Below the pieces are notes generated by a model. It saw nothing but the letters and a program-made list of their open reading frames with translations. It was not told where the DNA came from and did not search any database. Below, in pieces: positions 1 through 46,312 of a stretch of DNA of 64,000 nucleotides. Positions within the stretch are counted from its first letter, which is position 1. The number at the start of each line of letters is the position of its first letter. A program made the translations under genes and the position numbers. Source of the DNA: a virus; IMG/VR virus record IMGVR_UViG_3300016476_000584, positions 117-64,116 of that record; one strand, written 5' to 3'.

Positions 1-33
1 GACGCATATTCCAAGCTGATTCAGCCTGCGGAT

Positions 34-531
34 GTGCTGGCCGTTCGTGCGGAGTATAACCGCCAGATTGGCGAATTTCAAGCGGCAGGCCATCGCGTTA
101 TCTGCGCGGCCTACAATTCTGCCTTTGATTTCAAATACTTGCCTGAGACGGTCGCCGTCCTGACGGATGGTGCTGTCACGCGGTGGCTTGACAAGCGCGT
201 GGAACTGATGGACATTTGGGACTTCTGGGGCGAATCGGTGCCGCGTCATTACGCGCAAAAGGCGAGTGCTAGCGCGTCTGGCCGATTCGTTTCGACCTCT
301 GCCGAGGAAGCCTACAAATACGAGTTTGTCAAGGACGATTTTGTCGAGCGGCATATCGCTTGGTCGGACGTTGAAATCGAATCGGACATTCTGGTGCGGG
401 CGCTCTCGCGCAAGAAAAAAATGCCGGTTGTCAAGTCCCCCGCCGAACTGGCTGGCGCGGTGTGGCAGAAAATCAACCGGCGACTCGGCATCGACGGCAA
501 GGCACAGTTGCCGCAGGCTGTCAACGCCTAA
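34..531 (+). CDS. hypothetical protein, possibly 5'-truncated by the window edge
   Basis: 165-aa ORF with a GTG start at the window edge; followed by a GC hairpin plus T-run at 533-566. Confidence 0.4.
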   Translation: MLAVRAEYNRQIGEFQAAGHRVICAAYNSAFDFKYLPETVAVLTDGAVTRWLDKRVELMDIWDFWGESVPRHYAQKASASASGRFVSTSAEEAYKYEFVKDDFVERHIAWSDVEIESDILVRALSRKKKMPVVKSPAELAGAVWQKINRRLGIDGKAQLPQAVNA

Positions 532-566
532 GTGAGGGGCTTCGGCCCCTCATTTTTCTCAACAAA
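532..566 (+). terminator. rho-independent terminator
   Basis: Hairpin GAGGGGC-TTCG-GCCCCTC followed by TTTTTT. Confidence 0.6.
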
Positions 567-572
567 ATCAAT

Positions 573-612
573 GGGTTAGCGGGCGGGGCGCGGTCTGCCC
601 TAAGCTGTTGAA
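573..612 (+). repeat. GC-rich intergenic element, copy a
   Basis: AATGGGTTAGCGGGCGGGGCGCGG...CTAAGCTGTTGA; family recurs at 1095, 1683, 2183, 2743, 3731, 4459, 5115 and 5240. Confidence 0.6.
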
Positions 613-633
613 AATGCACACAAAATTACCCGT

Positions 634-662
634 TGCAGACACTAACGAATCACCGTATACAA
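634..662 (+). promoter_or_regulatory. sigma70-like early promoter
   Basis: TTGCAG-N17-TATACA followed by the AAATCATCA leader and a CAGGAGG ribosome-binding site. Confidence 0.55.
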
Positions 663-682
663 AATCATCACAGGAGGTTGCC

Positions 683-1075
683 ATGACTAAAGTTTTCGTC
701 CCTGACTGGTATGACCCGCCGAGCGGCTGGCGGTATGGATTTCCTAAAACGTGGCCCGCAGGATTGGAACGGTCAGACGAAACGTTGGCTGCACAACTCA
801 AGGCTGACGGATATCCTGAAGATGCAATTCCCGTGGCTGTCGGACACACTCGATTCGGAGGGCACTTTGAAGTGACTGGAACATATGAAGAATGGATGAA
901 GCAGGTTGATCAAATTTTGATCAAACGCACTGGCGGTCTTGATCAGATGATGCTGCCTGACTGGCTTAGCCGCGACTCCTATGAGTGTGGCATGACTCCC
1001 GAAGAAGGTGCGGACGCCTGCCTAGAGTCGGCTGGATGGGAAGATGACGACGAAAGGATTGTTGACGAACTCTAA
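683..1075 (+). CDS. acidic early protein, hypothetical
   Basis: ORF 608..1075; likely start is the ATG preceded by CAGGAGG. Confidence 0.5.
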   Translation: MTKVFVPDWYDPPSGWRYGFPKTWPAGLERSDETLAAQLKADGYPEDAIPVAVGHTRFGGHFEVTGTYEEWMKQVDQILIKRTGGLDQMMLPDWLSRDSYECGMTPEEGADACLESAGWEDDDERIVDEL

Positions 1076-1268
1076 GAAAAACCCAGCTATTTCAATGATA
1101 TAGCTGGGGCGGCGCCCCCGCGGCTAAACTGTTGATTTCATTGCATAATTTAGTTCGAGCCAGACTCCATTTTCTGCGTGTCAAGGCAAAAATTCCTCTT
1201 GCTCCCTGCCTCGATTCGCGTTATACATATCTCACTGAAGCGAAACAGCCAACATGAGGAGATTGCAA

Positions 1269-1595
1269 ATGGCTGAACCGAAAGTGAACTACACCGAGTC
1301 GATGGTCGAGCAGATGCTGCAAATGTATGCTGAACTCGGTAACGAGGGCATCGAGCAGATTGCCCAAACTCTGGGCAAGCCTGTGCGCTCCGTGCGGTCC
1401 AAGCTGGTCCGCGAGGGTGCCTATGTGGCCGATCCCAAGGCCCCGAAGGCTGCCAAGGTGGAAGGCCCCACCAAAAAGGAACTGGTCAACGAACTGGAAT
1501 CGCTGGTCGATTTCCCCGTTGACGGTTTCATGGGCGCTACCAAAGAGGCTATTGCCTCTGTGATCGCTCTGGCGCGGGCGGTGAAAGCCGCCTGA
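1269..1595 (+). CDS. GcrA-like DNA-binding protein
   Basis: IEQIAQTLGKPVRSVRSKLVREGAY resembles the GcrA N-terminal motif; paralog of 2526..2732. Confidence 0.45.
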   Translation: MAEPKVNYTESMVEQMLQMYAELGNEGIEQIAQTLGKPVRSVRSKLVREGAYVADPKAPKAAKVEGPTKKELVNELESLVDFPVDGFMGATKEAIASVIALARAVKAA

Positions 1596-1617
1596 GCCTA
1601 ACCCGTGGCGAGTGTCA

Positions 1618-1652
1618 AGCCCCTGCCGAAAGGCGGGGGCTTTTTTTGTGTC
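1618..1652 (+). terminator. rho-independent terminator
   Basis: GCCCCTGCC-GAAA-GGCGGGGGC followed by TTTTTTT. Confidence 0.6.
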
Positions 1653-1682
1653 TAAAATGCAACACTAAAAAACTCAATGATT

Positions 1683-1730
1683 TCAATAGGTTAGCGGGCG
1701 GGGCGCTGGCTGCGCTAACTCGTTGATTCA
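1683..1730 (+). repeat. GC-rich intergenic element, copy c
   Basis: AATAGGTTAGCGGGCGGGGCGCTGGCTGCGCTAACTCGTTGA; the TTAGCG/CGCTAA stem encloses GGGGCGC. Confidence 0.6.
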
Positions 1731-1799
1731 TATCGTTTATTTCCTATATTGACGAAATATAGCGAATCGCCTATAAAAGCTTTAACAGAGGAGATAGCC

Positions 1800-2051
1800 A
1801 TGAACCGCTTCGAAGAATCAAAAGCCGACACGCTCAGCCGTTTGCCTGTGCTGCGCTTTATGAACGCAATCGGCATGATTGCTTGGCGTGATGACCGCTA
1901 CGGCGGAGCCGAGCAACGGTTGCGTATGCTGCACCCTCTCTCGTGGCCGTGGCTTATCGTTATGGTTCTGTTTGCCGTTATCATGCACGGCGTGGTTGAG
2001 GTGGGGAAAGAACTGAAAACTCTTTGGCGCGGTCAGTGCGTGTGGTGGTAA
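1800..2051 (+). CDS. small membrane protein
   Basis: ATG preceded by AGGAGATAGCC; hydrophobic segment LIVMVLFAVIMHGVV; promoter TTGATT-N16-TATATT upstream. Confidence 0.4.
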   Translation: MNRFEESKADTLSRLPVLRFMNAIGMIAWRDDRYGGAEQRLRMLHPLSWPWLIVMVLFAVIMHGVVEVGKELKTLWRGQCVWW

Positions 2052-2182
2052 TATGTCGCGCCATAAACAAGCCCGCACGCAAAAGCTGATTGATTATTAC
2101 TACAGGTTGTCAAGAAAAACAACTTGCGATCTTAAACGCTGGCACTTTCGTGCAATGGCTCTAGAACTGGAGATTGAACTAG

Positions 2183-2235
2183 CAATATCAAGGGGTTAGC
2201 CACCCCGGCGCCCCGCTGTCTAACACATTGAGAAC
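2183..2235 (+). repeat. GC-rich intergenic element, copy d
   Basis: AAGGGGTTAGCCACCCCGGCGCCCCGCTGTCTAACACATTGA. Confidence 0.6.
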
Positions 2236-2262
2236 ACACAGAAAAATAACTCTTGCACTCTG

Positions 2263-2292
2263 CTCATGATTCGTCGTATAGTTAATCATCAA
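2263..2292 (+). promoter_or_regulatory. sigma70-like early promoter
   Basis: TTGCAC-N18-TATAGT, then the TAATCATCA leader and an AAGGAAA ribosome-binding site. Confidence 0.5.
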
Positions 2293-2305
2293 GAAAGGAA
2301 ATCAC

Positions 2306-2524
2306 ATGGAAGCACCTTCGGTTTACATCGTCCATCACAACGGAGCGGACGTTGAATGTTACGGAACGTTGGAAGAGGATTCCAATTTCAGCGTTGTCTG
2401 TGAGGATGAAGAGGTTGACGACGTTTGGTGCTACGGCATCGAAGGCGAGTTGACCTGGGAAAATGTGGTTGCGGAATTGCAGCCGCAGTTTGATTCTCGC
2501 ATCGTTGAAATCGGGACTTGCTGA
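2306..2524 (+). CDS. small acidic protein
   Basis: 72 aa with a ribosome-binding site. Confidence 0.45.
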   Translation: MEAPSVYIVHHNGADVECYGTLEEDSNFSVVCEDEEVDDVWCYGIEGELTWENVVAELQPQFDSRIVEIGTC

Positions 2525-2525
2525 C

Positions 2526-2732
2526 ATGAAACCGATTTGGGAAAGCTGGCCGCAATGGCTGACTGACGCTGTCGTGTCGGCCTATAAGAGCGGCAAAGAA
2601 CCGGCAGAAATTGGAGCGGTTCTTGGCCGCCGCGAGGCAGTGATTCGCGGCAAGCTGGTCAGGCTCGGCGTATACGAGAGCGCCGCCATGAAACGTCAAC
2701 TGAAGATTGCAGAGATGGCAGAAGGCTTTTAA
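2526..2732 (+). CDS. GcrA-like DNA-binding protein
   Basis: WESWPQWLTDAV...PAEIGAVLGRREAVIRGKLVRLGVY matches the GcrA N-terminal domain pattern (W...L...LW..G.SA.QIA..LG...RNAVIGK.HRLGL). Confidence 0.5.
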   Translation: MKPIWESWPQWLTDAVVSAYKSGKEPAEIGAVLGRREAVIRGKLVRLGVYESAAMKRQLKIAEMAEGF

Positions 2733-2742
2733 TATCAAGGGG

Positions 2743-2790
2743 TTAGCCACCCCGGCGCCCCCGCCCGTAACACACTGATTGTAAACAGTT
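2743..2790 (+). repeat. GC-rich intergenic element, copy e
   Basis: Near-identical to copy d. Confidence 0.6.
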
Positions 2791-2798
2791 TTTTGTTG

Positions 2799-2827
2799 TT
2801 GCAACGTCTAGAGAATCACCGTATACA
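2799..2827 (+). promoter_or_regulatory. sigma70-like early promoter
   Basis: TTGCAA-N17-TATACA followed by TAATCATCAG and AAAGGAGA; drives a 52-aa ORF at 2852..3010. Confidence 0.55.
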
Positions 2828-3086
2828 TAATCATCAGCAAAGGAGATAGCGATGGAACTGAGCATGAGCATGTTTGTTCGTAAAGAAGATCGGGATGCGC
2901 TCGATGAAGCTGTGCGTGCATCGCGTATCAAGGCTGCTGCCGTTGTCACACGTCTGCAAAGCAGCGGCACTCACTGGACCCTGACCACTAAACCGGAGAA
3001 AAGCAAATGAGAATCCGTATTCGTCTCAGCAAACCCAAACGCAGCCGCCGTCAAATCTGGCGTGCCAAACTCGGAGGTATCTTTCG

Positions 3087-3290
3087 ATGAGCAAACTTTA
3101 CACGTTCGTCATTCCGTTTAGCGGAACCATGAGCGTTTGGCTGGAAGCCGAATCCGAAGAAGAAGCCCGCCAAAATGTTCTGGACGGAAATTGGTGGGAC
3201 TCCAACGAAGAATCATTTGAATCGCATCCTGAAAAGGATATGGTTCTTGTCAGTGTCGAAGAAATCACAGAAGGAGAAATTGAGGAATGA
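3087..3290 (+). CDS. small acidic protein
   Basis: 67-aa ORF. Confidence 0.4.
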   Translation: MSKLYTFVIPFSGTMSVWLEAESEEEARQNVLDGNWWDSNEESFESHPEKDMVLVSVEEITEGEIEE

Positions 3291-3712
3291 AACGTTTTAT
3301 CGTCGCCATCATGGCGTTTCTGGGCCTGTTCACGCTGGTCGCGTGTCAGGATGATGCAAAGGTGGCAAGCTATAACATCAGCAAAGCCGCCGACAATTTC
3401 GAGATTGACCGCCGAATCGTTTTCTATAACGGCATCAACGGCGAATATATGCTCACAATCGAGGGTCGATGTTCAATCGAGGACCAGACCACTCAACTTG
3501 AGGTTACTTGCAAGGTCGGACCAAACGCCTTCAAGAAGCACTTCCTTGGGTTGAGCGATAACGTCACGTATTTCGCTGAACAGCAAGAAACCGCCGATGT
3601 GAGCGTGTATCATCACCGAATCACATTCAAGCCGCAAAGCATCCTTGGTGACGTTGACTTCCGCGGTGACGCAGGGGAACTGACCCAGAACAAGAGCGAG
3701 GCGATGCAATAA
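3287..3712 (+). CDS. putative lipoprotein
   Basis: Signal peptide with lipobox LVAC. Confidence 0.5.
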   Translation: MKRFIVAIMAFLGLFTLVACQDDAKVASYNISKAADNFEIDRRIVFYNGINGEYMLTIEGRCSIEDQTTQLEVTCKVGPNAFKKHFLGLSDNVTYFAEQQETADVSVYHHRITFKPQSILGDVDFRGDAGELTQNKSEAMQ

Positions 3713-3730
3713 CAAAAAAAGCCTGATAAT

Positions 3731-3780
3731 CCAATGGGTTATCAGGCCGGGCGCCCAGGCCCGTAAGCTACTGAAATCAT
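3731..3780 (+). repeat. GC-rich intergenic element, copy f, acting as terminator
   Basis: GCCTGATAA-TCCAATGGG-TTATCAGGC hairpin, then CGGGCGCCCAGGCCCG and CTGA. Confidence 0.55.
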
Positions 3781-3794
3781 TAGAAACTTAGTTA

Positions 3795-3823
3795 TTGCAA
3801 CCAACCACGAATCATCCTATACA
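3795..3823 (+). promoter_or_regulatory. sigma70-like early promoter
   Basis: TTGCAA-N17-TATACA followed by TAATCATCGAAAGGAAA; drives a 40-aa ORF at 3845..3967. Confidence 0.55.
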
Positions 3824-3978
3824 TAATCATCGAAAGGAAAACGAGATGGACCTGACCTACGAAGAATACATCGAGTTTATCAACCACCTCTTCTTGCAAG
3901 AGTTTGTTGACTTTCAGTTTCACATGGGTGATACTGAATCCACTGTCGAATCACTCACAATCCTCTGAGGAGAAAGAG

Positions 3979-4215
3979 ATGACCACCTACACTGTTATCT
4001 GGCGCGATGCTGGCGAAGATTTCATGTTCACGGAAGTGACGACGGCTGTTGAGCCTGCCGAACTGACCACGACTGATTGGGTCGTCATGGCAGGCGAAGT
4101 CGAATATGCCGAATGGTCCGTCGAAGAACGGATTGCCGCTCTGGCCGATCTGCTTGATGGCTATGAACTCTTGGATGTGCTGATCGGTGAACCGCAATCT
4201 GCACTTTTTGCATAA
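3979..4215 (+). CDS. small acidic protein
   Basis: Ribosome-binding site GAGGAGAAAGAG; part of ORF 3904..4215. Confidence 0.45.
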   Translation: MTTYTVIWRDAGEDFMFTEVTTAVEPAELTTTDWVVMAGEVEYAEWSVEERIAALADLLDGYELLDVLIGEPQSALFA

Positions 4216-4225
4216 GGAGCGAATC

Positions 4226-4450
4226 ATGTATGTGCTGCTATACGTTGATAGCAACAACGAACCTGGCTATATTCAAGGAACCGTTGAGGAAATCAACACA
4301 CGATTGCGAACTCTCTGGATGAATGGCGACATTGACCGCGACGAATGGGAGTTTCGTTCTCCGTGGCAAATGCTTGGCATTGAGGATGGAGCCTTGACTC
4401 CGATTGAGCGCGTTGAGTGCTCGCATACTCCATACTTCGAGGTGCACTAA
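4226..4450 (+). CDS. small hypothetical protein
   Basis: Ribosome-binding site AAGGAGCGAATC; followed by a terminator hairpin at 4459-4487. Confidence 0.45.
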   Translation: MYVLLYVDSNNEPGYIQGTVEEINTRLRTLWMNGDIDRDEWEFRSPWQMLGIEDGALTPIERVECSHTPYFEVH

Positions 4451-4524
4451 CAAAAAACCCTGTATGTTCAAGGACATACAGGGCGGGCGCCTCGGACCCC
4501 AAACCATTGGAATCCTTAGCTTTT

Positions 4525-4893
4525 TCAATAGGCCAGATATTCAATCTTGACCACATCCTTGAGAGGAACGCCAGTATCCTCACACACGCCACGCACATGG
4601 TCGGCAACATCAAGCAGAGTTGCTGCCGACACAATCATATCAGAGCGATGGGCAAAGCAGACCCGCCACATGGTCTGAGAAATCTCAACAGCCTTGACGG
4701 TTGCTTTGGGCGGGACTACGCGGATTACCGCAACATTCCTACGCCCCATGCGTTCCCATTCAATAGGGTATTCTGCTTTCATAATGTCGCAGAAATCATT
4801 GAGAGCATCGGGCGCGGTGTCAGCGATAATCTCCAGGCTGATACTTTGGCCGCCTTGCGGACCGTATTCTCCGACAACTTCATATTTCGGCAT
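4525..4893 (-). CDS. hypothetical protein
   Basis: Starts MPKYEV... behind ribosome-binding site GGAGAC; convergent with the early block. Confidence 0.4.
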   Translation of the reverse strand: MPKYEVVGEYGPQGGQSISLEIIADTAPDALNDFCDIMKAEYPIEWERMGRRNVAVIRVVPPKATVKAVEISQTMWRVCFAHRSDMIVSAATLLDVADHVRGVCEDTGVPLKDVVKIEYLAY

Positions 4894-5319
4894 TGCACGT
4901 CTCCTGTATTCAGAAAAGAGAAGCCTATTCACTATCAGCAGGATGGCCATCCCTACAGCGTCAAGTTACCGACCCAGTATCATCCGTGCAGGCCGCCCGT
5001 GTGATGGGTGGAGGCGGTGCAGTCTGTCGCGGCATCGGCTAGGCTTCTCTTTACTGCCTACTCAATCTTTATACGCGATTCTCACCGACCATGCAAACGA
5101 AAAATAACTACACGATTTCAACGGGTTAGCAGTCGGGGCGCCCAGCCTCCTAACTCATTGATACGACTAAGAAATTCATGCAAGGGAATAACCTTGCATT
5201 TGCTCAATGCAAGGTTCTAGACTTGCATAATTAAAACAATGGGTTAACAGTCGGGGCGCCCTACCCGCCAAGCAATTGAAATCATTCATCTTTTCCACCA
5301 CACGTGCAACGCGATGTCA

Positions 5320-5680
5320 CCACAACCAGCAGCAGAGCTGCCAAGCGCAGCTTGCGCCAAGTAGAAAGTAGATTTTTGACCATGCGGCCGTCCAGTACGA
5401 TTTTGATTTGTGTGCTACCAGTGCTCAGTCTATGAGAGCGTGGCTGCGCCAGTAGGAAAATGGCAAGTACTTTTTTGACGCGTGTGGTGGGATTCGTGCA
5501 AGTACCGGTTTGATTTCGTGTCCTGCAACGGTGCGCAACTTCGTTGCGACGGCGGGTGCGGAGCACCAGTAGGCAACCGGCAAGTAGAATTTTGATGCGT
5601 GTGGTGGGATTCTCACGATTCGTTGTACGATTCCGGGTCCTGCAACGGTGCGTCACTTCGTGACATGCCGAATCACCCCA
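5320..5680. repeat. three tandem ~115-bp repeats
   Basis: Unit CCAGTAGGNAANNGGCAAGTANTTTTTGACGCGTGTGGTGGGATTC..TCCTGCAACGGTGCGNNACTTCG; copies 2 and 3 are near-identical, copy 1 is degenerate. Confidence 0.7.
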
Positions 5681-6657
5681 TCCCACTAATGAAAAGAGCC
5701 CCTAGGAGCAATCCTAGGGGCTTTTTGGCATTCGAGAAGTGTGAAATGACCTGAAAATCCGCTTGGACGTAGTCCAACAGGCCTGCTAGGCAGGGGGTAG
5801 GTAAATTTACAAGTGTTTTTTCTAAAATATGGTCAATTTGGAGGAATTTAAAAGATTATTTCTTGACAGAATAGGTTGTAACCTATTTTTACGGATTTCT
5901 GGCGCGGTCGGCTAGGGATAATTATCGTTACTAGACTAAAATCTCTCTCAGAATCAAGATAATCACTAGACAGAGTCCTGGTCACTAAGAGAATCTAAAA
6001 TCTAGATAGAGTCCTAGATCATAGGAAAATAAAACTAGGACCCTATGCCATTTCATGGCATCATTAGCCCCCTATGCCAATTCTTGGCAAGACGGGCATG
6101 CCTTGTGGGCCTGAGCCACTCCGTGGCAGAGCTAAAGGGAACTAAAATTGAACTATAAAACTAGTATAAAACCTGTAATAAATTAATAATAAACGATAAT
6201 CACATCATTAGGCCAGATTCTGGTCTTCATGGTCAGCCGATATCCGCTACGCGGATGCTCGCCAAGTGAGATTCGCGTACGCGATGGACTGTTCTGCACA
6301 ATTCCAGTGGACCCCCGCACACTTCCGCTCATTTCCCCATACTTGGAAAACAACGCTCACTGAGAGCGCTTCGCTGACGCTACGCGCTCCACACAACTAA
6401 GCATCGTTTTCGGCTTTGTGGACTTGCGCGGAGCGCAACTTCGTTGCTTAACCTGCTTTTTTGTCTACCTCTCAATCGTACACCTAAAAAGATTCATTGT
6501 CTAGTAGCCGAATTATAAAAAAGTATGGTTGAGGACCATTTTAGAATATTTTTTTAATGCCCTGCCCCCAGCGCAAATAGGTCGCTAGACAGTTAAGAAA
6601 ATTATGCTTGACCTCAACCAGTGGCCGTGTTAATCTAGTATCAAAGGAGAACAAATT

Positions 6658-6900
6658 ATGTATACCGTTACAACAAATGCTGACTGGCGTGTAGCCTCAG
6701 CCAACTCAACTGTAGCTTTTCAGGTAACTGGAGCAGGTGCAGTATTCGTAGGACTAGGAACCAATGCGGCTCCTGCCGCAGGATTTCTATACGAAGCCAA
6801 CCAAGGAGACCGTGGGGCCTTAACTGACATATTCCCTGCTTCTAGTGGAAATGTGGTTTGGGTTCGTTCCAGCTTCCCAAGTGAGGTTACTCTAGGATGA
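6658..6900 (+). CDS. small Gly/Ala-rich protein, possibly structural
   Basis: Strong promoter TTGACC-N17-TAATCT and ribosome-binding site AAGGAGA. Confidence 0.45.
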   Translation: MYTVTTNADWRVASANSTVAFQVTGAGAVFVGLGTNAAPAAGFLYEANQGDRGALTDIFPASSGNVVWVRSSFPSEVTLG

Positions 6901-7706
6901 AATCACCTTTCGACACGTTCGGGGTGAACTCTTGGGCGCCTGGACAGGACGGAGGGTCTACAGTGCTAGGCGCACTCAAGAGTCTTGCTAGAACTCTATC
7001 CGGCATCTCAGCCAACGCCACTAGCGTGGCAACGGCTGTATCGACCATTGAGAGTAGAGGATTGTCAGTGTGGGCAGCCCCCACTGCAACCAAGGTTGCA
7101 GAAGCTCTTGTGGGAACCACTGGAACAGTATCGGCTGGTACATTTCAGTATCGTGCCGGCGGTCCTCTTGGCGCTCGTGATCTAGGCGCTCTAACTGGAG
7201 CTACTCCAGCCGCTGGCTTGCCTTGGAACGGGATGGCTTTCTGGGATGGAAATTCGTTTAGAGGAATCCTCGTTTGGGCCTGGACAGGCGATACGATAAA
7301 CTCTCTAGGTGACATTGTGGCTGGTGCTCGTCCTGTTACCACACCTGCTTCCATCTTCTCACCTGTGACCGGAGACAACCTGTTCCGTCGCGTTCGTCCA
7401 CTAGTCATCGACTCGGGTGGCAACATTGTGCTAGACGGTAGCGATGGCGCTACTGGATATCAGTTCTCATCTGCTCAAAACCCAACCTCAAATGGATACT
7501 ACTCAACCTCATTCTTCTCACAAGACGATGGAGTTTGGGGCATCCGCCCAGGAGCCTCGATTGATGGTGACACGCCTGGGCCCTCACTCACCACAGGATC
7601 GTATGGATTTCAGAACTTTAACGGCAGCGAACCTGTCAGCTCATACTGGTGGGGTGGCACTGCTCAGACTTCTACCACGTTCGTTGGAGTTGTATTCTCT
7701 GCATAA
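6897..7706 (+). CDS. Gly/Thr/Ser-rich protein, possibly structural or fibre-like
   Basis: 269 aa of low complexity; followed by a terminator hairpin GGGCCCTCACGGGCCC plus T-run. Confidence 0.4.
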   Translation: MKSPFDTFGVNSWAPGQDGGSTVLGALKSLARTLSGISANATSVATAVSTIESRGLSVWAAPTATKVAEALVGTTGTVSAGTFQYRAGGPLGARDLGALTGATPAAGLPWNGMAFWDGNSFRGILVWAWTGDTINSLGDIVAGARPVTTPASIFSPVTGDNLFRRVRPLVIDSGGNIVLDGSDGATGYQFSSAQNPTSNGYYSTSFFSQDDGVWGIRPGASIDGDTPGPSLTTGSYGFQNFNGSEPVSSYWWGGTAQTSTTFVGVVFSA

Positions 7707-7717
7707 GAAAAGGGCCC

Positions 7718-8251
7718 TCACGGGCCCTTTTTGGTAGATGCTCGTTGAATTGCTCGGCGTTCTATGGTGGCTAGAACTCCTGAGAATAGAGTGTGTAGGT
7801 TTCTATAGATCCACCGGATAGGACGATTGACGAGATCCCAGGCTACTCCCCACGGCCATAGAACTGCCCACGATGAGATTCGATGGCTGTTCCACGAGGC
7901 TGTATAGTCACGGAAGCGATAGCTCTTACGAAAATCGTCGTGGGAATAGTCGGTTGGATTTGCCCGTACATAGTCGTTCCAAGCTGAGGCGATCTGAGTC
8001 TCACGTGCACGGATCCAGCGTGGAAATCGGATCATGGTAGCATAAGCTAGTCCTACGAGTACATAGGCTACCAGAGCAGCCACTCCTAGCAACGGATTTG
8101 CTAGGGCAGCAGCCCAAACAGGAACCTGGAACCACCACTGAACAGCGGCTCCTACAGCTAGGAAGCTGACAAAACCTCCAAACCAGTTCTCGTACTCTAT
8201 GGATGCAATTCCTAGAACGGCAATGACCAATAAGGCTAAGATTTCAATCAT
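7718..8251 (-). CDS. membrane protein
   Basis: Multiple hydrophobic helices. Confidence 0.4.
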   Translation of the reverse strand: MIEILALLVIAVLGIASIEYENWFGGFVSFLAVGAAVQWWFQVPVWAAALANPLLGVAALVAYVLVGLAYATMIRFPRWIRARETQIASAWNDYVRANPTDYSHDDFRKSYRFRDYTASWNSHRISSWAVLWPWGVAWDLVNRPIRWIYRNLHTLFSGVLATIERRAIQRASTKKGP

Positions 8252-8786
8252 GAGGAGTCTCCAAGGCTATGCGGCGTACCGCGCTTCTTAATGTGTTTAG
8301 GTCGTGGTCGTTAGTGACGATGCGGTCAGCTAGGTGTCTAATGTCTTGCTCGCTAGCATGCCCATCACTCTGAGCGCCAGGTCGGTCAATCCAGATGAGT
8401 ATTCCACCTACCGCACGAAGTGCGTCCACTTCATGTGGAAACCTTATATCCGAACAGCAGACCGGGTTTGGCTTTAGCATTCTCACACGGCGTTGCCACA
8501 TTGGAATCCAAAGGTTCGGGTGGATTGAGTTTCGCCACTCTGTACCCAGCTGCTGCATTGCATGGCGCGGAGTTTGATCGTACAACCATTCATCTGGCTG
8601 CTCCTTAAGATCACCTTCTAGACGACGTTCCACTTCGTCGTGTGTTAGTCCGCAATACTGATACATAGTGCGTAGCATTGCTTTGAGCGGTGCAGCCATC
8701 TTCACATCTACGAAACCTAACTGTTCTAGCGTTTTGACGGCTTCGCTCTTGCCGCTTCCTTTAAACCCTGCGAAGGCTATAATCAT
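8244..8786 (-). CDS. deoxynucleoside monophosphate kinase (T4 gp1-like)
   Basis: P-loop AFAGFKGSGKS; length and pattern fit the phage dNMP kinase family. Confidence 0.6.
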   Translation of the reverse strand: MIIAFAGFKGSGKSEAVKTLEQLGFVDVKMAAPLKAMLRTMYQYCGLTHDEVERRLEGDLKEQPDEWLYDQTPRHAMQQLGTEWRNSIHPNLWIPMWQRRVRMLKPNPVCCSDIRFPHEVDALRAVGGILIWIDRPGAQSDGHASEQDIRHLADRIVTNDHDLNTLRSAVRRIALETPHD

Positions 8787-11188
8787 TTCTTATTCTCCAT
8801 AGTTCTGTAGCTTGGCATACGCTACCTGGGCGTCCATAGCTGTCTGCTAGTCCAGTCTGAGCCAGCAGCACGTCAACTAGGTGTTCATTCTCTTGAATGT
8901 ACTGGTCCCATAGTGCAGAGTATAGTTGACGAACCTCTGCATCATTTTGAGGGCGACGACCTTTAGCTTCTCTCCAGCCTAGCCCAGTAGATCCATCTTC
9001 AAACTGTTTGGCCGCCTGATACTGTTCTTCAATTGACCGCCCATTCACCTTGGCGTAGAACGCGCTAAAACGCTTATCACCTAAACTGGAACATTCTAAA
9101 AACGGAGGTTCACCATGCCATATCACTGAAGCCTCTCCCAGCAATATTCAATGATGCGTTGCGACCGTTGGTCAGGATGCTCCGGGCTCACATCAACTCC
9201 GTTGATGATGTCAGGTTTCCAATCCGCGTCCCACATCTTGAACTCGTTACGAATCATGCGACCTAGGCTGCCATGATACTTGACAAGGCTATCACGAGGG
9301 CTGTCAACGAACTGTACGACAAACGTCGGACCCATTGATTGTATTTTTTTGGCTAACCAGACCGCCATGCTGTGTTCATCGTCAGTCACTGGCCTTCTCC
9401 TTCAGATCGTCAAGCTGTTTCCATGCACGGCAGCAAAAACAATCTTCATCGTAGTCCTCACATCGAGGACCGAACCATTCCTCGATGGCTTCTTCAATCA
9501 AATCCGTCATTATAAATCTCCTAGCGCATCTTGAGCACGTTGTATGGCCCAAGCTACTCGTTCTTCATCCCGGTCGTCTAAAGCTTTTAACAGTTCCACT
9601 AGCACTTCTGTTATCGCTTCGCAATCCTTGCGATGCTTTGATTTTACTGATTCAAAAATCACATCTAGCGCAGCATCTAGATTGCGCGGATGTGGTAGCC
9701 CTTCTTCAGCTACCTGCTCTACCACCCGTGCGACTTCGTCGCGGGGATCATCGTGATCCCACTCCGTGGGTTGAATAGCAGCCAGCTTGTATCGCCGCTC
9801 GCACGAATGTTTCTGCCAACGACCTAGTGATGTGTGGTGTTTGCCCGTTTCATCCACACCGAACCATACCCATTCACTCATTCGCCTCTCCTACACAACG
9901 ACAGCTACAGGCTGTCCTACTTCTAGGTCTGAACTGTCCGCCTGCTCTTCATCTATGATTTCTAGGGATGCGCTTACCAGAGGATGAATCGTCCACTCAT
10001 CTTTAAAGTATACAGGCAGGTCACCGTGTTCTCGTTTAACACGCTCTAGTCGCTCAATCAATTGTGTAATTAGCATAGTTCCATTTCTCTTATCTCGATA
10101 ACCTATCTACAATCCATTCGCCTAAGATCATGCCTGCAAAGTAAAAGCAGGCTGACAGTACAATGCTAGTAAACACGTATCCTGTCACAGTCCAAAGAGC
10201 GACAGCTCCTAGTGTGACCATCGTCACATCATAAATTCCAATGTCAGACATCATCTTGTTGCTTCAATCTATCGGCGACGTATTTCAAACTTTCAGGAAA
10301 ACTGAAATTAGCGTATCCGCCTACGCTCTCTACATATTCGTCATGGAGCGCACGCTCACGAGCATATCGAGGATACACACGAGTATACCACTCTTCTATT
10401 GTTTCTTTTTCTTCTTCATCCATGTTTACTCTGCTCCCTCAAATCGGTGCCTGCTCTACGAGACCTACGATACATCGAACGCAGTGGGTATCCTAACGCT
10501 TCCGCAGCTACCATGTATGCGTAAGCTTTACCTACAAACTCGGCGGTGCCCATCTTACGTTTTGCTACTCGCTTGAGCACACGATTGATGTGAGCGAATG
10601 CCACTTCATTAACCTCGTCTACAAACTCTTTATCTTGATCGTTCACGTTCCCGTCTCCATTGACACCAATCATCCCATAACACAAACAGCATGTACACAC
10701 AAGCTGCACTTAGCGCTGATTGCCACCACACTGCGGCGGTTACAGCTGCAATTGCCGAGGCTACAATCCAATCAGCTACAAATACAGCTACTGCCCAATC
10801 ATACCATCTAATCATCTAACCAACACTGTCCTATGCTCTCACAAAGGTCTCTCCGATCGCAGTCGCATTCAGCCATAGTTTGGTAGATGCTCTGTCTCCA
10901 ATTCTTAGGGGCCTGTTTGACTACGTCAAATCCTTCCATCCGCAGTATGGAGAGTATGCCTTGAGCGAGATCAGGTACATCACCTGTCTCGCAAGTCTTT
11001 AAGGCTAGTCGGAGGGCTTCTAATGCTGGCTCACTCATCGAATACAGTCTCCATTCATATACTGCATACCGCTCTCGATGCACTGTTGTTTAAATGTAAG
11101 CAAGCGATTTTCATCTTGAGTAATCATATATCCAATACCCCCTAGAAAAAAGGCAGCTAAAGAGCATACGATTAATACCGGTACGTGT

Positions 11189-23059: not shown

Positions 23060-23261
23060 TCGTATCCTTAATGTATCATACATTGTTTGATAGCAGCAAG
23101 GTCAATCTTAAAATGTTCTGCTATCTCATGAGCAATACCCATACTTTTATCTATGAGATAAAGGTTAAGCTCTTTTTGCTGGTGAACATAAACCGCTAAA
23201 GAGCCGACAAACATTGCATAGCCCATGCGTATTCTCCTAAAAGCGGCCCGTTCTGTTTCTA

Positions 23262-23620
23262 GGTGGAGCCATACCCACTTAAATTAAGCTGCTAGAGCTA
23301 ATTTAACAGGTGCTACGTTGTCGTTTGCACTTATAATTGTCTTGCGGTTATCAGTCGCTTGCTCACTGGCTCCTGGTTTCCTCATGCTCAACATGTCGAA
23401 TCCCTTTCGGCCCCATCAGAGATACACTGTTATCCTTCTATCGCCGACCACGAGCACCGCAGCATTACCTGTAAAGTCGTGACACGTCTAACCAGCGAAC
23501 GTATCTGTAACAGCCATTCCATATAGCCAGCGTACCCGCTATAGGTCTGAGCCAGTGTATCCGTGGTGGAGCCGCCGGTATCGAAACCGGGTCCATGCTG
23601 CATCCGATTTACGTAATCAG
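23262..23620 (-). ncRNA. ssrA: circularly permuted (two-piece) tmRNA gene
   Basis: Minus strand. Acceptor piece GGACCCGGTTTCGATACCGG-CGGCTCC-A-CCA at ~23573-23605. After a ~150-nt intervening hairpin, the coding piece starts GGGGCCGAAAGGGATTCGAC (~23418). Tag ORF GCA AAC GAC AAC GTA GCA CCT GTT AAA TTA GCT CTA GCA GCT TAA encodes ANDNVAPVKLALAA. The GGGGCCG/CGGCUCC acceptor helix has a G3.U70 wobble. Confidence 0.8.
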
Positions 23621-25651
23621 AGCTTAATCTTTGTGTGGTTAGGCATCTAACAGACGATCTTAATGGGTATTGCTTGCGAGTATCTAGCCAGGACTAAAAA
23701 GCTGTGACTAAAACCTATTACTCTCAAAAGACGCAAGCGCAGGGTTTCTGGTTTATGCCTACTACTATAAACCCTTTTTCGTTTCCACACGAGGCAGAAC
23801 ACTTATACTACATGGGCGACCCCAAGTTGGTCGGGCAAGGTCCAAATCTTCTGGTTATCAGCCAGCCGTATTGTCGTAGGTCGTCAAACCTAACAGCCCT
23901 AGTTCATTTCATGAACGGTCAGTTGACGCTAACCTGTTCACTAGCCTGCAATTCTGCCATCTCTGTTTTTGCAGCGAGGCGTTGTTTCTTTAAATCTTGC
24001 AGCAGCGCTTTGTGCTCAGCACTACGATTATGTTCCCGTTCAGCTTCTAGCTGCTCTACTTGAGCATCGAGCTCACGATGGCGTTTGGCTAGCCATTCAA
24101 TTCGAGTCATAAGTTTATCCTTTCTACTGTAATTCTAAACAGAAGAGGATCTCTGTTCCTCATTAACTGCTGGACATCTTTGTCCAAATCCCTAGTATAA
24201 ATCTCAACAACACTACCACCAACTTCGTGTGGTTGATTAGTTTGCGTGTTGATTAACGTTACTCGATACATTATACTATACCCGATTCGGACACAACATG
24301 CAAATTATTTTTTAAATCAAAAATCTGTGCATCGGGCCAAACTTGAAGTAGTTCTTGTGCGCTCTTAATAGAATCGTAGGCCACTGTGACCACACTAGAA
24401 TTGGCATAGTTATCATTACTAGCTTCAAAAACTACATGACGTACTAGTTCACCGTTACGACGAATTGCATATCTGCTCAACCTTTTTCTCCTATATCTGC
24501 ATTAACAATTGCGTTGTGCAGAGTCATATAACCGCAGTCCATACCGCGCATATACATAGACCCATCAAAACCAAATACATCATATAGAATGTATCGGTAA
24601 GTTCCTTGGTCTATGATTTCGCCTTTATAGATGCGCTTTACTACAGCGTAAAACGCATCTTCACGTTCTTGTTCAGTAAGCCCGTTCCACCAAGCATCAT
24701 TCTTGGCCTCATAAGAGGCCTGTTCTTTTTGCTGTTCTTGACCTAGCTCGGCTAGAACGTCTAATAGATTTTTAGTAGACTCGTCCATCATCAATCCCAA
24801 AGCCCTTGATAGTATTTTCCAAATAGTCTAAAGCCATTCTGAATACGAGCAGCATAGGCTTTTTGCCCGTCCCAGTCGATTTTGTAGTCGGAACTCTCAT
24901 CTCTAACCATTTCAGAGGTTCCATCTTCGCTAATCTTCTTAAAACGAAAATTAGGCTCACCGCTTCTAAACTGGTCTTCCCAATCTTGCAGCATTCCTGC
25001 CTTAGTCTCAAAGGCGTGAATCATTTCATCTAGAACCCAATCCCAACGAGCGAAGTGATGCTCATCCGGTGCGTACACATTCTTTTCTTCAGCAGTAAGA
25101 GGGCGAGCTGCCGTGCTACGAAGATGCTCTGGAACATCCTCATCATCTACACTAGGAGCGCCGTGCTTATTTTCCTTAAGCTGTTTGAGCATAGGAAGAA
25201 TGATGTACGCTAGAGTGTTGTCCATAGACCAAGTATCCCAGCGGTCAATACGAACTTTAATCTTACGCTCTTTGAACTTATCCAACCACAGAAGAAAGCG
25301 ATAGAGTAGAGTGTTAGGACGCTCGTCAAGCATATCATACAACTCTCCTACCTCCGGTTCTGGGGCAATGCTTCCATGAGCCAACCACTCACCAAATCTG
25401 TGTACTCGGTCGGCAGTATGTGGAAATCCATACTCATCACGTTCTTTAGGGACCCAGAACATCAACTTTTCTGCAAGTTGATAAGGTCCAAACCAGCTTT
25501 TATAAGGGCCGATATATACTTTCATTTCCCACCTGTTAAGATTGTGTAGACTATGTATACTACACTCATATAAAATCCAGCAAAGATAGCCAGCAAGGCT
25601 ATCGCTACTATTACAGATACAATCATACTCATAAATCAGCCCTTTGTCAAT

Positions 25652-30221: not shown

Positions 30222-31184
30222 TTACTTTAAGCTGCTTACTAGCTCTTGGGTAGCCGCCAACTCTGGGTCAGGCACTAGGCCGTAGGCAGCAAGCGCCCCT
30301 TCTGGCCCTGCCATGTCATAACTTACAAAGAACTCTACGTATTCTATTAGACCTGGGATAGTATCTAAGTGCGCGTTCTTTACATAGAAATACAGTGGAC
30401 GGCTGATAGGATAGTCCCCACTGGAAATAGTTTCTACTGTTGGTTCTACTCCATTGATAGTAGATACTTCAAGCGTGTTACGATTGTTCTCGTAAAAACT
30501 CAACCCAAATACTCCAATAGCTGTTGGGTTAGCATCTAAGCGTGCTAGAGTTTCAGTATAGTCGCCGTCAATATCAACAGCAGCGCCGTCCGTTCTAATA
30601 GTGTGACAAGCTTTTTTCTGGTCGTCGTCTAGCTTATCAATCCCAAGCGCTGCTTTACACCCTTCTTCCATAACTTTCACATCGAATACTTCACGAGTGC
30701 CATGCTTAGTTCCTGGAATAAATGCTAGAATCTCTACGTCTGGAAGTGCTGGGTCAACATCGCTCCATGTTTTTGCGGTACTTGATTCGTGTAGAGCGCT
30801 GTACAGCTGTAGAGGTGTTAGGTCGTCAATGTTTAGCCTGTCCACGCTAGATGCAAACACAATTCCATCATATCCTATTCTAACTTCTGTGATTGTTCCT
30901 ATTGAGGCTTCGCACTTAGCCCATTCTTCCTCTTTCATTTTAGAAGAGCTGTTCGCTATGTCTACAGTGCCCTCACCTATACCTTCGCACAGCTTTTTAC
31001 GGCCAGCACCAGAACCGCCACCTTCAACTACAGGGGTTGGGAAATCAAAGTTTTCACCAAACGCCTCAGCAACTATAGTTGCATACGGAAGCACTGTAGA
31101 AGAACCCGTTACTTGTATATTATCTCTTGCAAATGCAGAAGAGGCTACTGCAATAAGTGCAACACTTAGTATTAATGTTTTCAT
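30222..31184 (-). CDS. pstS: phosphate ABC transporter substrate-binding protein PstS
   Basis: Signal peptide plus VTGSSTVLPY...GGGSG...DIANSS..M..EE, the PstS signature. Confidence 0.7.
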   Translation of the reverse strand: MKTLILSVALIAVASSAFARDNIQVTGSSTVLPYATIVAEAFGENFDFPTPVVEGGGSGAGRKKLCEGIGEGTVDIANSSSKMKEEEWAKCEASIGTITEVRIGYDGIVFASSVDRLNIDDLTPLQLYSALHESSTAKTWSDVDPALPDVEILAFIPGTKHGTREVFDVKVMEEGCKAALGIDKLDDDQKKACHTIRTDGAAVDIDGDYTETLARLDANPTAIGVFGLSFYENNRNTLEVSTINGVEPTVETISSGDYPISRPLYFYVKNAHLDTIPGLIEYVEFFVSYDMAGPEGALAAYGLVPDPELAATQELVSSLK

Positions 31185-36859: not shown

Positions 36860-38287
36860 TCACACACCTTCCTTTGCACGTTCACGAATGTTCTCGAACG
36901 TATCTTCAACTAGGATAACGCCGTTCTTGAATACAGGACGTAGAAGGTTTGTTGCCTGGAACTCCCAGATGTAATCTTCTGGGACAGTGCGGATGTACTC
37001 GTTGATACCAAATCCAGCTTCTTTTACAAGAGCCAGACGACCTTCTTTTGAACGCTTGCCGTGGTCGGTTACTGGGTCTTTTGAGAATCCAACCCATTCA
37101 CCCTCGTTAATACGAATAGCTGACGCTTTCATAGCATATTTGAGAGTGTCACGGTTCCAAGCCTGTAGCAACCCGCCACCCATGCCAAATGCGATATTTT
37201 CTGCCGAGAAACCTGCTGCTTTCAGATTGTCAAGAATGATTGGCAGTGAAGTCTCATTGATGCCATCACCTTGGATAACACGAACCGAAGGATGCAGGAC
37301 CTTGAAGCCCTTACTGTTCACGGTGTAACCAAACTTGTCCATCAGGATCTTGATGACTTCGATTGGAACAGTTAGCGGATCACCAGAGTCGGGGCGTACC
37401 ACTACGGTGCCGCCTGCAATCATAACCTTGCCTTTCAGTCTAGTCCCCCAGAGTTCACGGCAGGCCTCCCATAGGTTGAAACTGTCAGAGACGCAGCCAT
37501 ACAGCTTGCCCGGACCAGCAAACTTGTCAATCATGTTCTCGAAGGCTTTGACTTCATTCTCGCGACCCCAAGAAGTGATAGTGCTATGTTCACTAGCTGG
37601 GATAGAGAAACCGACAACTTCATCAGTGTTGTAGTATTCCATAACACCAACAAGAGCTTCAGCGGTGTCAGTGCCCATGAAGTTCACGAGGTGGGCCATA
37701 CCGCCAAGCATTGCAGTTTCACTAGACGATGCGCCACGAGCACCAAAGTCATGTAGCTTGAAGTTAATCTGAGCATCGACTGGAACGTCAGATGTTTCTG
37801 CAAGAGCACGCTTGATGATCTTCTTCATCTTGCGCGACTTCGTCGCCACGGTAGAAGGATACCACACGCCACGAAGCATAGCTGTTTCCAAGTACGAAGT
37901 CAACCACCACAGGCGCGGGTCTGTGTTAACTACCTGAACCTGTACGTTATGGGTTGGCATAACCGTACCTTCTGGTACTGCTTCTACCAGCACTGGCAAC
38001 ATACCGTTATATTCGTTTACGATAATTTCCCAACCTTCGCGGTTGAAAGGTAGACCGTGTGCTAGAACAATACGTTCTGCACGATCTACGTCCGCCATTG
38101 TGATAGGCGTGGTCATATAGTCTTTCATAAACGCTTGCAGACCAAAGAACACACTCTCATCTTCGCCACCGCGGCTTTCAATGTACGAAGAAATGTGAGT
38201 AGTACCTGCTGGATACTGAACCCACTGAGAAAATTTGTAGCTATCGGTACGAAGGATAGCTGAGATAAGATGTAGTACTGTTTTCAT
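36860..38287 (-). CDS. nadV: nicotinamide phosphoribosyltransferase
   Basis: 475 aa; N-terminal ...ILRTDSYKFSQW and overall NAMPT-like pattern. Confidence 0.7.
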   Translation of the reverse strand: MKTVLHLISAILRTDSYKFSQWVQYPAGTTHISSYIESRGGEDESVFFGLQAFMKDYMTTPITMADVDRAERIVLAHGLPFNREGWEIIVNEYNGMLPVLVEAVPEGTVMPTHNVQVQVVNTDPRLWWLTSYLETAMLRGVWYPSTVATKSRKMKKIIKRALAETSDVPVDAQINFKLHDFGARGASSSETAMLGGMAHLVNFMGTDTAEALVGVMEYYNTDEVVGFSIPASEHSTITSWGRENEVKAFENMIDKFAGPGKLYGCVSDSFNLWEACRELWGTRLKGKVMIAGGTVVVRPDSGDPLTVPIEVIKILMDKFGYTVNSKGFKVLHPSVRVIQGDGINETSLPIILDNLKAAGFSAENIAFGMGGGLLQAWNRDTLKYAMKASAIRINEGEWVGFSKDPVTDHGKRSKEGRLALVKEAGFGINEYIRTVPEDYIWEFQATNLLRPVFKNGVILVEDTFENIRERAKEGV

Positions 38288-44334: not shown

Positions 44335-44410
44335 TGGTCCTGACAAGTGGATTCGAACCACTCCTGTCTGATCCACAATCAGATGTGCTGACCGCTAACA
44401 CTATGTCAGA
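44335..44410 (-). tRNA. tRNA-His (GTG)
   Basis: Cloverleaf with anticodon loop TTGTGGA and T-loop GGTTCGAATCC; CCA encoded. Confidence 0.8.
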
Positions 44411-44416
44411 ATATAT

Positions 44417-44491
44417 TGGAGTCCCTAGCAGGAGTCGAACCCACATCATCGCGTTCGTAGCGCGGTGCTCTATCCATTGAGCTATAGAGAC
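44417..44491 (-). tRNA. tRNA-Arg (ACG)
   Basis: Anticodon loop CTACGAA; CCA encoded. Confidence 0.8.
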
Positions 44492-44492
44492 A

Positions 44493-44828: not shown

Positions 44829-44889
44829 GGGATCGAACCGCGGACCTTTAACTTACTAGGTTATTGCTCTACCACTGAGCTACTAGGGC
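44815..44889 (-). tRNA. tRNA, isotype uncertain (anticodon reads AGT)
   Basis: Good acceptor, D-arm and T-arm; anticodon stem ATAAC/GTTAA with loop CTAGTAA. Confidence 0.55.
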
Positions 44890-46180: not shown

Positions 46181-46227
46181 GTTATAATTAATAATAGCTC
46201 ATCTTTTACCAGAGAGCAAGTTGTATT

Positions 46228-46306: not shown

Positions 46307-46312
46307 TATATT

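Follow-up and report, generated by a model that had tools for sequence, protein, structure and literature searches.

Reiterated binding sites that are spread in many copies through the intergenic regions of an early gene block and serve class-wide control are familiar from several phages, including the conserved inverted repeats of phiC31, the stoperators of cluster A mycobacteriophages and the SPO1 sites of TF1, a protein of the HU/IHF (integration host factor) family, which lie at early promoters in the terminal redundancy. In Escherichia coli, the RIP and RIB types of bacterial interspersed mosaic elements (BIMEs) are reiterated extragenic elements that contain IHF sites. Another kind of reiterated intergenic unit is represented by the promoter-early stem-loop (PeSL) cassettes of T4-like phages (Arbiol et al. 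2010, PMC2839356; Comeau et al. 2014, PMC4122927). Here we analyze a family of 44-bp imperfect palindromes in a 64-kb stretch of DNA from a large uncultured phage (IMG/VR record IMGVR_UViG_3300016476_000584, positions 117 to 64,116; hereafter the window) and place it as a new variant among PeSL-like cassettes, reiterated operator arrays and IHF-assisted phage early promoters. The reading that we prefer, and to which we give even chances, is that each palindrome is a duplex-DNA docking site at which IHF-type bends would be arranged around a GGCGCC center, co-regulating the promoters of the pre-early gene class, and that it doubles as a junction for gene shuffling.

The resemblance to each of these systems has its limits. 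Like the PeSL cassettes, the units described here are reiterated intergenic segments of approximately 100–130 bp that combine a G+C-rich palindrome, an A/T tract, a strong early promoter of the sigma70 type and a Shine-Dalgarno sequence; small orphan genes lie next to them, and where relatives differ by an insertion, deletion or replacement, the units are found at the junction. However, the stem-loop of the PeSLs is a variable polyG/polyC hairpin with demonstrated terminator activity, whereas the present element has a fixed length of 44 bp, conserved blocks, no covariation and no terminator features, and its gene context is T5-like rather than T4-like. The operator arrays consist of 13–17 bp sites (hydroxymethyluracil-dependent in the case of TF1) that lie at or inside promoters and have known binders; the element, in contrast, spans 44–76 bp and lies upstream of the -35 hexamer. 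The RIP and RIB elements are likewise reiterated and extragenic and likewise join IHF-type sites to G+C-rich palindromic DNA, but there an IHF site lies between two repetitive extragenic palindromic (REP) sequences, whereas here two IHF-type sites flank a G+C-rich center; unlike RIP/RIB, the element is phage-specific and keeps a fixed distance to promoters.

Little is understood of how phages with temporal gene classes single out the very first class so that it can be activated jointly and later shut off. Even in T5, it is not known what sets the pre-early promoters apart from the early ones or what the essential DNA-binding protein A2 binds, and both the DNA target of the A2-type protein and its role in the second step of DNA transfer have remained unknown since the 1970s. 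In the clade described here, this first class bears a DNA tag of its own that is sharply defined and yields clear predictions: one symmetric module before nearly every first-expressed promoter suggests a shared switch for the whole class. It also extends the PeSL idea of portable, gene-shuffling promoter modules to a phage group outside the T4 family.

The 44-bp element and its distribution

The window opens with a plus-strand block of small genes (positions 1–5290) that has a G+C content of 50–53 %, compared with approximately 44 % in the remainder. Eight strong copies and one decayed copy of the element are present in the 64 kb, all between positions 568 and 5279 (Table 1). A position weight matrix (PWM) for which nearly all training copies came from other contigs retrieved exactly the eight strong copies and no other match in the window, so that the repeat family of the original prediction proved to be real, confined to the early block and also conserved in relatives. 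Furthermore, the seed GGGTTAGC-N4-GGGGCGC, allowing up to three mismatches, has 12 matches (0.65 expected), 11 of them inside elements, and GGCGCC occurs nine times in the window, seven times as the center of an element. Nine copies with a consensus of variable length (an N6–10 spacer) had originally been listed. The length is in fact constant at 44 bp, with the refined consensus TCAA-nGGG-TTAGC-N6-GGCGCC-N6-sCTAA-N4-TTGA, and eight of the nine copies lie where they had been placed. The exception is the copy listed at about 4459 (copy 7, 4468–4510), which scores 12.5 with a PWM built on the window, within the range of shuffled sequences, and below 12 with the family PWM; because it has lost 1 nt, whereas contig L120, the closest relative, has an intact orthologue (L120:12437), we regard it as a decayed copy.

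Across 126 unique copies, information peaks at (T)CAA (positions 1–4), TTA(GC) (9–13), GGCGC(C) (20–25), (C)TAA (33–36) and TTGA (41–44), and both N6 spacers are nearly free. Conserved A/T tracts add 16 nt on each side, which brings the full form to approximately 76 bp. Once copies are oriented by the promoter that they serve, the promoter-distal and promoter-proximal halves yield the same consensus, which makes the sequence of the element two-fold symmetric. Orthologous copies of the window and L120 differ at 9 % of the block positions and at 37 % of the spacer positions (Fisher P = 6.5e-8), with only three changes out of 108 at the 18 best-conserved core positions. This comparison leads us to conclude that the conserved blocks are under purifying selection, and we take the low block divergence as the signature of duplex DNA whose individual bases are recognized by a symmetric protein or complex.

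A pattern scan of viral contigs combined with a protein-guided search yielded more than a dozen related uncultured contigs. Ten loci, among which two pairs are near-identical, carry 11–22 copies of the element per 9–20 kb of the same block; L141, an NCBI contig of 168,860 bp, has 17 copies, and further viral contigs have several copies each. In the stretches of L120 and L141 that were examined, the copies end where the minus-strand genes begin, with none in the minus-strand parts of these two contigs. No element was found, even with a relaxed pattern, in the sister contigs L128–L137, which share the same helix-turn-helix (HTH) gene, the A2-like gene discussed below; nor does the T5 left terminal repeat contain a copy. 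Neither positions 1–8000 of the window (megablast) nor the A2-like protein (tblastn) produced a match among 50,697 phage records; a cultured close relative does not exist. A search of 185,579 bacterial and archaeal species genomes (one genome per species) with the pattern CAA-N4-TTAG-N7-GGCGC-N8-CTAA-N4-TTG gave three isolated hits, as many as chance would produce, so that the element is particular to this phage lineage and is neither a host regulon site nor a feature of prophages.

Promoters of a single design and a GcrA-type motif

Seven sigma70-type promoters of one design (TTGnnn-N17/18-TATAnn) are present in the block, six pointing rightward and one leftward. The rightward promoters (P1 to P6) and the conserved leader of the original prediction, AATCATCA followed by AGGAG, were borne out, the latter by sequence logos, which give the order of the cassette as A/T tract, -35, -10, leader and AGGAG Shine-Dalgarno sequence. 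The -35 hexamer lies 20–22 nt from the element edge at six promoters of the window and 63 nt away at copy 2. The last two copies had been described as orphans with no gene behind them; this holds for copy 9, which has no promoter, but not for copy 8, which is no orphan because the leftward promoter P7 (5096..5068) is positioned at the same 21-nt spacing. A P7-like arrangement recurs in L120 and L130, and L123 has a leftward promoter that lacks the GANTC site described below. Copy 9 itself borders on a non-coding repeat region and is conserved there, and the last elements of L120 and L141 have a similar non-coding flank. Between copies 8 and 9 (5178–5228) lie two adjacent hairpins or repeats built on TGCAAGG/CCTTGCA, and L130 has a similar 'gcaagg' sequence at this place.

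The spacing holds across the family. When the window and seven relatives are considered together, a strict promoter pattern finds a downstream match at 65 of the 123 copies, and in 48 of these 65 the TTG of the -35 hexamer starts 20–22 nt from the element end; the remaining strict matches cluster at 40–41 and 62–65 nt, mostly before A2-like genes. With a looser pattern, a promoter is found at 19–22 nt on either side of 86 of the 123 copies. The linker between element and promoter varies in sequence, with the A/T tract located 5–11 nt before the -35 hexamer. Assuming the usual -35/-10 geometry, the 44-bp core would occupy approximately positions -100 to -57 and the promoter-side A/T tract approximately -46 to -41. 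Outside the block, at about 24.3 and 56.7 kb, the window has two promoters of a similar type that no element accompanies.

All seven window promoters contain a GANTC site, in the extended form YGAKTCK, 3–4 nt before the -10 hexamer and centered at about -19. In the window and the relatives of the GANTC type, 60 of 65 promoter sites fit YGAKTCK and 22 are exact TGATTCG, compared with 27 and 4 %, respectively, of the 141 other GANTC sites of the window. In Caulobacter, TGATTCG/YGAKTCK is the sequence favored by GcrA, which acts as a sigma70 cofactor and recognizes DNA methylated by CcrM (PMC4647560; PMC5887438), and the reported GcrA sites peak at -20 and -30 (Haakonsen 2015, PMC4647560; Wu 2018, PMC5887438). 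The block promoters resemble GcrA/CcrM-dependent alphaproteobacterial promoters in having an extended GANTC site near -20, a likeness that concerns the promoter and not the palindrome. It suggests a possible dependence of these promoters on CcrM-type methylation and a GcrA-type cofactor, in which case the first phage transcription may depend on methylated virion DNA and a host cell-cycle cofactor. No methyltransferase was found among the ten largest unassigned open reading frames (ORFs). Other element-bearing lineages have a TGn extended -10 in place of the GANTC motif and keep the palindrome, which identifies the palindrome as the constant part and the GcrA-type site as a lineage-specific addition.

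The transcript of P7 opens with a conserved region of approximately 160 nt (window 4905–5066, minus strand; L120:12495–12660; L130:14212–14387), for which RNAalifold predicts 52 pairs, eight with compensatory changes among the three sequences, and which has no Rfam match. The region precedes an ORF at 4893..4525 in the window and is kept in L120, which is without that ORF; we consider it a candidate non-coding RNA or riboswitch-like leader.

Candidate binding proteins and rival explanations

Each arm of the element reads (W)(A)TCAA-N4-TTA and thereby matches the IHF core WATCAANNNNTTR. The full 13-mer core is matched by 101 of 246 arms and TCAA-N4-TTR by 174; the window contains seven perfect WATCAANNNNTTR matches (3.35 expected), all but one of them in element arms. 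Bipartite IHF sites consist of WATCAR between two kinks, with TTR on one flank and an A-tract on the other (bioRxiv 10.1101/382655). On either flank of the element, positions -16 to -11 relative to the T of TCAA form an A/T tract with sharp limits (A/T 70–99 %, compared with 21–56 % at -10 to -8). The combined pattern W6-N8-WATCAA-N4-TTR occurs without mismatch three times in the window, always in an element arm, and with at most one mismatch in nine of the 16 window arms as opposed to three sites in the remaining 63 kb. The arms of copies 1 and 3 depart from it at zero and one, and at one and zero positions, respectively, and the right arm of copy 2 is a perfect bipartite match; the left core of copy 4, TATCAAGGGGTTA, matches WATCAANNNNTTR perfectly, and the flank of copy 6 reads AAAAAA-GCCTGATA-AT-CCAA. 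The lambda H' site, which we take to read AAAAAA-GCATTGCT-TATCAA (part of this string occurs verbatim in published text), has its A-tract at the same offset. The element arm shares the A-tract/WATCAA/TTR spacing of H' (A-tract plus WATCARNNNNTTR), and binding is here predicted from sequence. Given that no homologue of HU, IHF or TF1 was found in the window or the relatives' loci, the binding protein, if it belongs to the HU/IHF family, is most likely that of the host. The sites of CtrA (TTAA-N7-TTAAC), DnaA, FNR/FixK (TTGA-N6-TCAA), KorA/KorB (TTTAGC half-sites), LexA and sigma54 were considered and rejected as unfit in spacing and orientation.

The full module can be written as A-tract, 8 nt, WATCAA-N4-TTAGC, N6, GGCGCC, N6, GCTAA-N4-TTGATW, 8 nt and T-tract, approximately 76 bp in all. 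Each arm would be an inward-pointing site for an IHF-type bending protein of the HU/IHF family, and a stiff G+C-rich core centered on GGCGCC, which a second, dimeric factor may read, would keep the two arms at a constant distance of 18 bp. A host bending protein, already present at infection, would fold the upstream DNA back onto RNA polymerase and bring the GGCGCC core near the -35 region, so that all first-expressed promoters might be boosted together and later shut off together once a phage factor occupies the module. The reiterated cassette of element, A/T tract, promoter, leader and ribosome-binding site would also act as the recombination junction at which the small pre-early genes are shuffled. 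What the sequences show is that the module is two-fold symmetric, is selected block by block, keeps a fixed spacing, stays within the early block, is conserved in relatives and matches IHF sites; binding by IHF or any other named protein, and the direction of the effect on transcription, are what we infer from this.

Several points weigh against this proposal. IHF alone leaves the GGCGCC center, the GC after TTA, the G-rich N4 and the fixed separation of 18 bp unexplained; the center may call for a second factor, or a stiff core may be required structurally between two in-phase bends. IHF sites in nature mostly occur singly and contain much less information. The IHF consensus used is that of E. 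coli, whereas the host is probably an alphaproteobacterium. The A/T tracts could have other uses, on the promoter side as an UP element and on the far side as the T-run of leftward terminators at copies 2, 6 and 7. Moreover, the copies were gathered with the PWM, so the set is biased towards the consensus; many of them share descent or gene conversion and the counts are not independent; and the fixed spacing between element and promoter could partly reflect duplication of whole cassettes.

The identity of the phage factor leads to the T5-like gene content. The window encodes two A2-like HTH proteins, a longer one and a short paralogue that clusters with the same family. An hhalign comparison of the A2-like family profile with T5 A2 gave a probability of 95.7 % (E = 9e-9), and the family comprises at least 1,763 metagenomic proteins, many with the Pfam domain PF26822 (Phage_T5_A2), whose neighbors carry PF26880 (Phage_T5_dNMPase). 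In tblastn searches of the relatives' blocks with T5 proteins, E-values reached 2e-15 for dmp and 3e-7 for A2. Thus, A2 homologues occur in the window and in the relatives' blocks, and dmp homologues in the relatives' blocks, the window beginning inside the block; no A1 homologue was hit by tblastn in the window or the examined stretches of loci L120–L142. The original prediction had called these proteins GcrA-like. That link turned out to be weak, and we identify them as homologues of T5 A2 instead: Pfam GcrA is found below threshold in three of 21 A2-like members (best E = 0.0014), and a structure model (predicted local distance difference test score 75.6) has generic three-helix HTH matches only (E > 0.7), with GcrA absent among the 50 fold-search matches listed. 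By these comparisons the block resembles the T5 pre-early region, which likewise has small genes with strong sigma70 promoters followed by an untranslated, repeat-rich region, within the T5 left terminal repeat, but which lacks the element and has far fewer promoters. In several contigs the block lies near the contig end. Between the plus-strand block and a minus-strand block, the window has a gene-free region of approximately 1.6 kb (5290–6890) full of direct repeats, with units spaced by 117 nt at 5446 and 5563, shorter related units from 5359, and units spaced by 29–36 nt at 5966–6090; by analogy, it may correspond to the part of the T5 genome that holds untranslated repeats and the injection stop signal.

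In this setting, an operator bound by a symmetric dimer of the phage, with the A2-like HTH family as the obvious candidate and the likeness to IHF sites a coincidence, is possible although rather unlikely. Such binding would shut off or autoregulate the pre-early class, or organize the DNA that enters first. The two-fold symmetry suits a dimer, the A2-like proteins are the only clear DNA-binding family found in the blocks, with one to three copies per block (families exclusive to element-bearing loci, such as an acidic 77-aa protein, a Zn-ribbon protein and an HNH nuclease, provide no further DNA-binding candidate), and the element is as lineage-specific as a phage-encoded binder would have it, given its three chance hits in the bacterial species genomes. 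However, sister phages devoid of any element have a near-identical putative recognition helix (SVRSVRSKLVREGVY), and a better candidate for the A2 site exists in GTGTCAAGC-A5, which is conserved upstream of A2-like genes both in those element-bearing contigs that were examined and in at least one element-less contig; the three-part match to IHF sites would also be left unexplained. In the window, GCGTGTCAAGG is found at 1176–1186, between copy 2 and P2, and GCGTGTCAAGG/C-A5 (1176–1192) lies between the element and the -35 hexamer of A2-like genes, recurring in L120, L130, L127, L122 and L137; given its presence in L137, which has no element, it may be the operator of the A2-like proteins themselves. 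A combination of the two ideas, in which arrays of about 20 modules organize the first-entering DNA of a T5-type phage, with IHF folding it and a phage dimer, perhaps of the A2 type, reading GGCGCC, strikes us as quite unlikely; if true, one nucleoprotein array would fire and later silence the pre-early class and gate the entry of the remaining genome. As for the T5-type site-specific nicking system, the GGCGCC center does contain RGCGC on both strands, and the T5 major nick consensus is R/GCGCRGG (PMC3517423). Yet RGCGCRGG, on either strand, is present in only three of the 123 elements, a symmetric site would be cut on both strands, and about 20 clustered sites would fragment the first-entering DNA, so that the element centers are extremely improbable targets of such nicking. 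Finally, the cassettes might, as has been suggested for PeSLs, be mainly recombination or mobility modules, here kept alike by gene conversion, with a palindrome that has no regulatory ligand. In the comparison with L120, which is 85 % identical to the window over the first 1.6 kb, elements mark the limits of the genes that are replaced or absent: homology resumes at 2184 and 3732, next to the starts of copies 4 (2188) and 6 (3731), and stops at 4502 and 5162, next to the ends of copies 7 (4510) and 8 (5161). Across eight contigs, 95 of 522 homology ends, which are not mutually independent, fall within 15 nt of an element, compared with 58.7 expected, a 1.6-fold enrichment, and the spacer positions turn over fast. 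Gene conversion, however, would homogenize whole copies, whereas here short blocks are kept and spacers are free, and the block pattern holds across contigs whose genes are less than 70 % identical, implying selection on specific bases. We therefore find recombination as the main function decidedly unlikely, although a role in recombination can coexist with a binding function.

The original prediction had instead drawn GGTTAG and CTAACC as a stem around a loop with GGCGCC, had suggested RNase III/E processing as an alternative to regulator binding, and had let some copies double as terminators. An RNA or extruded-DNA hairpin, acting as a PeSL-like terminator or attenuator, as an RNase III/E entry site or as a 3' stabilizer, has some appeal: the arms are complementary at the conserved blocks, in about half of the copies the outer arms pair on folding, minimum free energies average approximately 1 kcal/mol below those of column-shuffled sets, and the elements begin a few nucleotides past stop codons, with a separate canonical upstream terminator in just 10 of 123 cases. 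In addition, the element-less sister phages carry ordinary G+C-rich hairpins that abut the -35 hexamer at some of the element positions in the classic PeSL-like manner (L128, L129 and L133). However, the aligned copies do not behave as a helix. When the full palindrome is treated as one, 62.9 % of the cells are paired in 121 copies versus 62.6 +/- 0.6 % after shuffling of partners, a value reached by 184 of 500 shuffles; variable stem positions pair in 33–75 % of copies, as column composition predicts; an extended alignment of 88 nt reveals no coherent helix and no run of co-varying pairs; and small hairpins around TTAG and CTAA show a weak subfamily signal only (41 % of cells paired). Both the long-hairpin and the local mini-hairpin models were rejected on covariation and on energy relative to column-shuffled sets. 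GGTTAG and CTAAC pair only because both arms keep one consensus, without compensatory change, and the center is a loop-less GGCGCC. The RNase III/E site is disfavored by the lack of a covarying helix, by a sequence symmetry that is independent of the direction of transcription, and by the lack of an Rfam match in positions 1–9000. A simple test for a hairpin followed by a T-run is passed by two of 123 copies, the T-run lying 10 nt beyond the palindrome and not directly after it, and real terminators precede copies 1 (a canonical hairpin and T-run at 533–556, just upstream) and 3 (1617–1642), which would leave these two copies largely untranscribed. We thus rejected the terminator role on the plus strand and consider any hairpin function very unlikely. 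The terminator claim survives on the minus strand for copies 2, 6 and 7, which overlap structures of a hairpin and T-run: at 1076–1103, 3713–3747 and 4450–4484, the altered left arm pairs with upstream sequence behind an A-run, and on the minus strand these read as intrinsic terminators, the one at 4457–4484 ending the minus-strand gene. The element is best explained as a duplex-DNA binding module and not as an RNA signal; of the original suggestion, the dedicated protein-binding site for the early class is supported by symmetry, selection, the 20–22 nt spacing, confinement and conservation, and the RNA-processing alternative is not.

Feature coordinates and other genes of the window

The positions of the elements, the promoters and the two A2-like genes are collected in Table 1.

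Table 1. Elements, promoters and A2-like genes in the early block; positions are those of the 64-kb window
Feature	Position	Strand	Description	PWM score
Element copy 1	568..611		approximately 552-627 with A/T flanks	49.7
Element copy 2	1092..1135		left arm altered (ATAGC), pairs with 1082-1090	43.6
Element copy 3	1683..1726			49.5
Element copy 4	2188..2231			52.9
Element copy 5	2735..2778		left core a perfect WATCAANNNNTTR match	53.5
Element copy 6	3731..3774		left arm altered (TTATC), pairs with 3719-3727 behind an A-run	44.4
Element copy 7 (decayed)	4468..4510		43 nt, 1-nt deletion; overlaps minus-strand terminator 4457-4484	
Element copy 8	5118..5161		serves a leftward promoter	55.1
Element copy 9 (terminal)	5236..5279		no canonical promoter on either side	47.9
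Promoter P1	633..661	+	TTGCAG-N17-TATACA; CGAATCA (reverse complement TGATTCG) at about -20; 21 nt past copy 1	
Promoter P2	1199..1227	+	for A2-like gene; CGATTCG; 63 nt past copy 2	
Promoter P3	1749..1777	+	TTGACG-N17-TATAAA; 22 nt past copy 3	
Promoter P4	2253..2282	+	TTGCAC-N18-TATAGT; TGATTCG; 21 nt past copy 4	
Promoter P5	2799..2827	+	TTGCAA-N17-TATACA; 20 nt past copy 5	
Promoter P6	3795..3823	+	TTGCAA-N17-TATACA; 20 nt past copy 6	
Promoter P7	5068..5096	-	TTGCAT-N17-TATAAA; GANTC site; 21 nt from left edge of copy 8	
A2-like HTH protein	1269..1595	+	108 aa; candidate DNA binder; PF26822 (Phage_T5_A2) on homologues; hhalign to T5 A2, probability 95.7 %	
Short A2-like HTH paralogue	2526..2732	+	68 aa; clusters with the A2-like family	

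The gene at positions 1–531, at the start of the window, belongs to a family of 234-aa proteins present in 11 element-bearing loci. Its motifs (DIETT ... HDCLIESD) resemble what we take to be those of a DEDD-type 3'–5' exonuclease, although no database match bore this out.

Outside the early block, the minus strand encodes 28 tRNA genes and a permuted transfer-messenger RNA (tmRNA) between 23 and 64 kb (23193–23655 and 44335–63838). The tmRNA scores above the threshold of the Rfam family alpha_tmRNA (60.6 bits) and has the tag ANDNVAPVKLALAA; because of this match, the host is probably an alphaproteobacterium. In addition, we identified auxiliary genes at 30222–31184, 36860–38287, 38515–39573 and 42168–43604, which encode a PstS-like phosphate-binding protein, a nicotinamide phosphoribosyltransferase, a fusion of nicotinamide mononucleotide (NMN) adenylyltransferase with a Nudix domain, and an RtcB-like protein annotated as RNA-binding.

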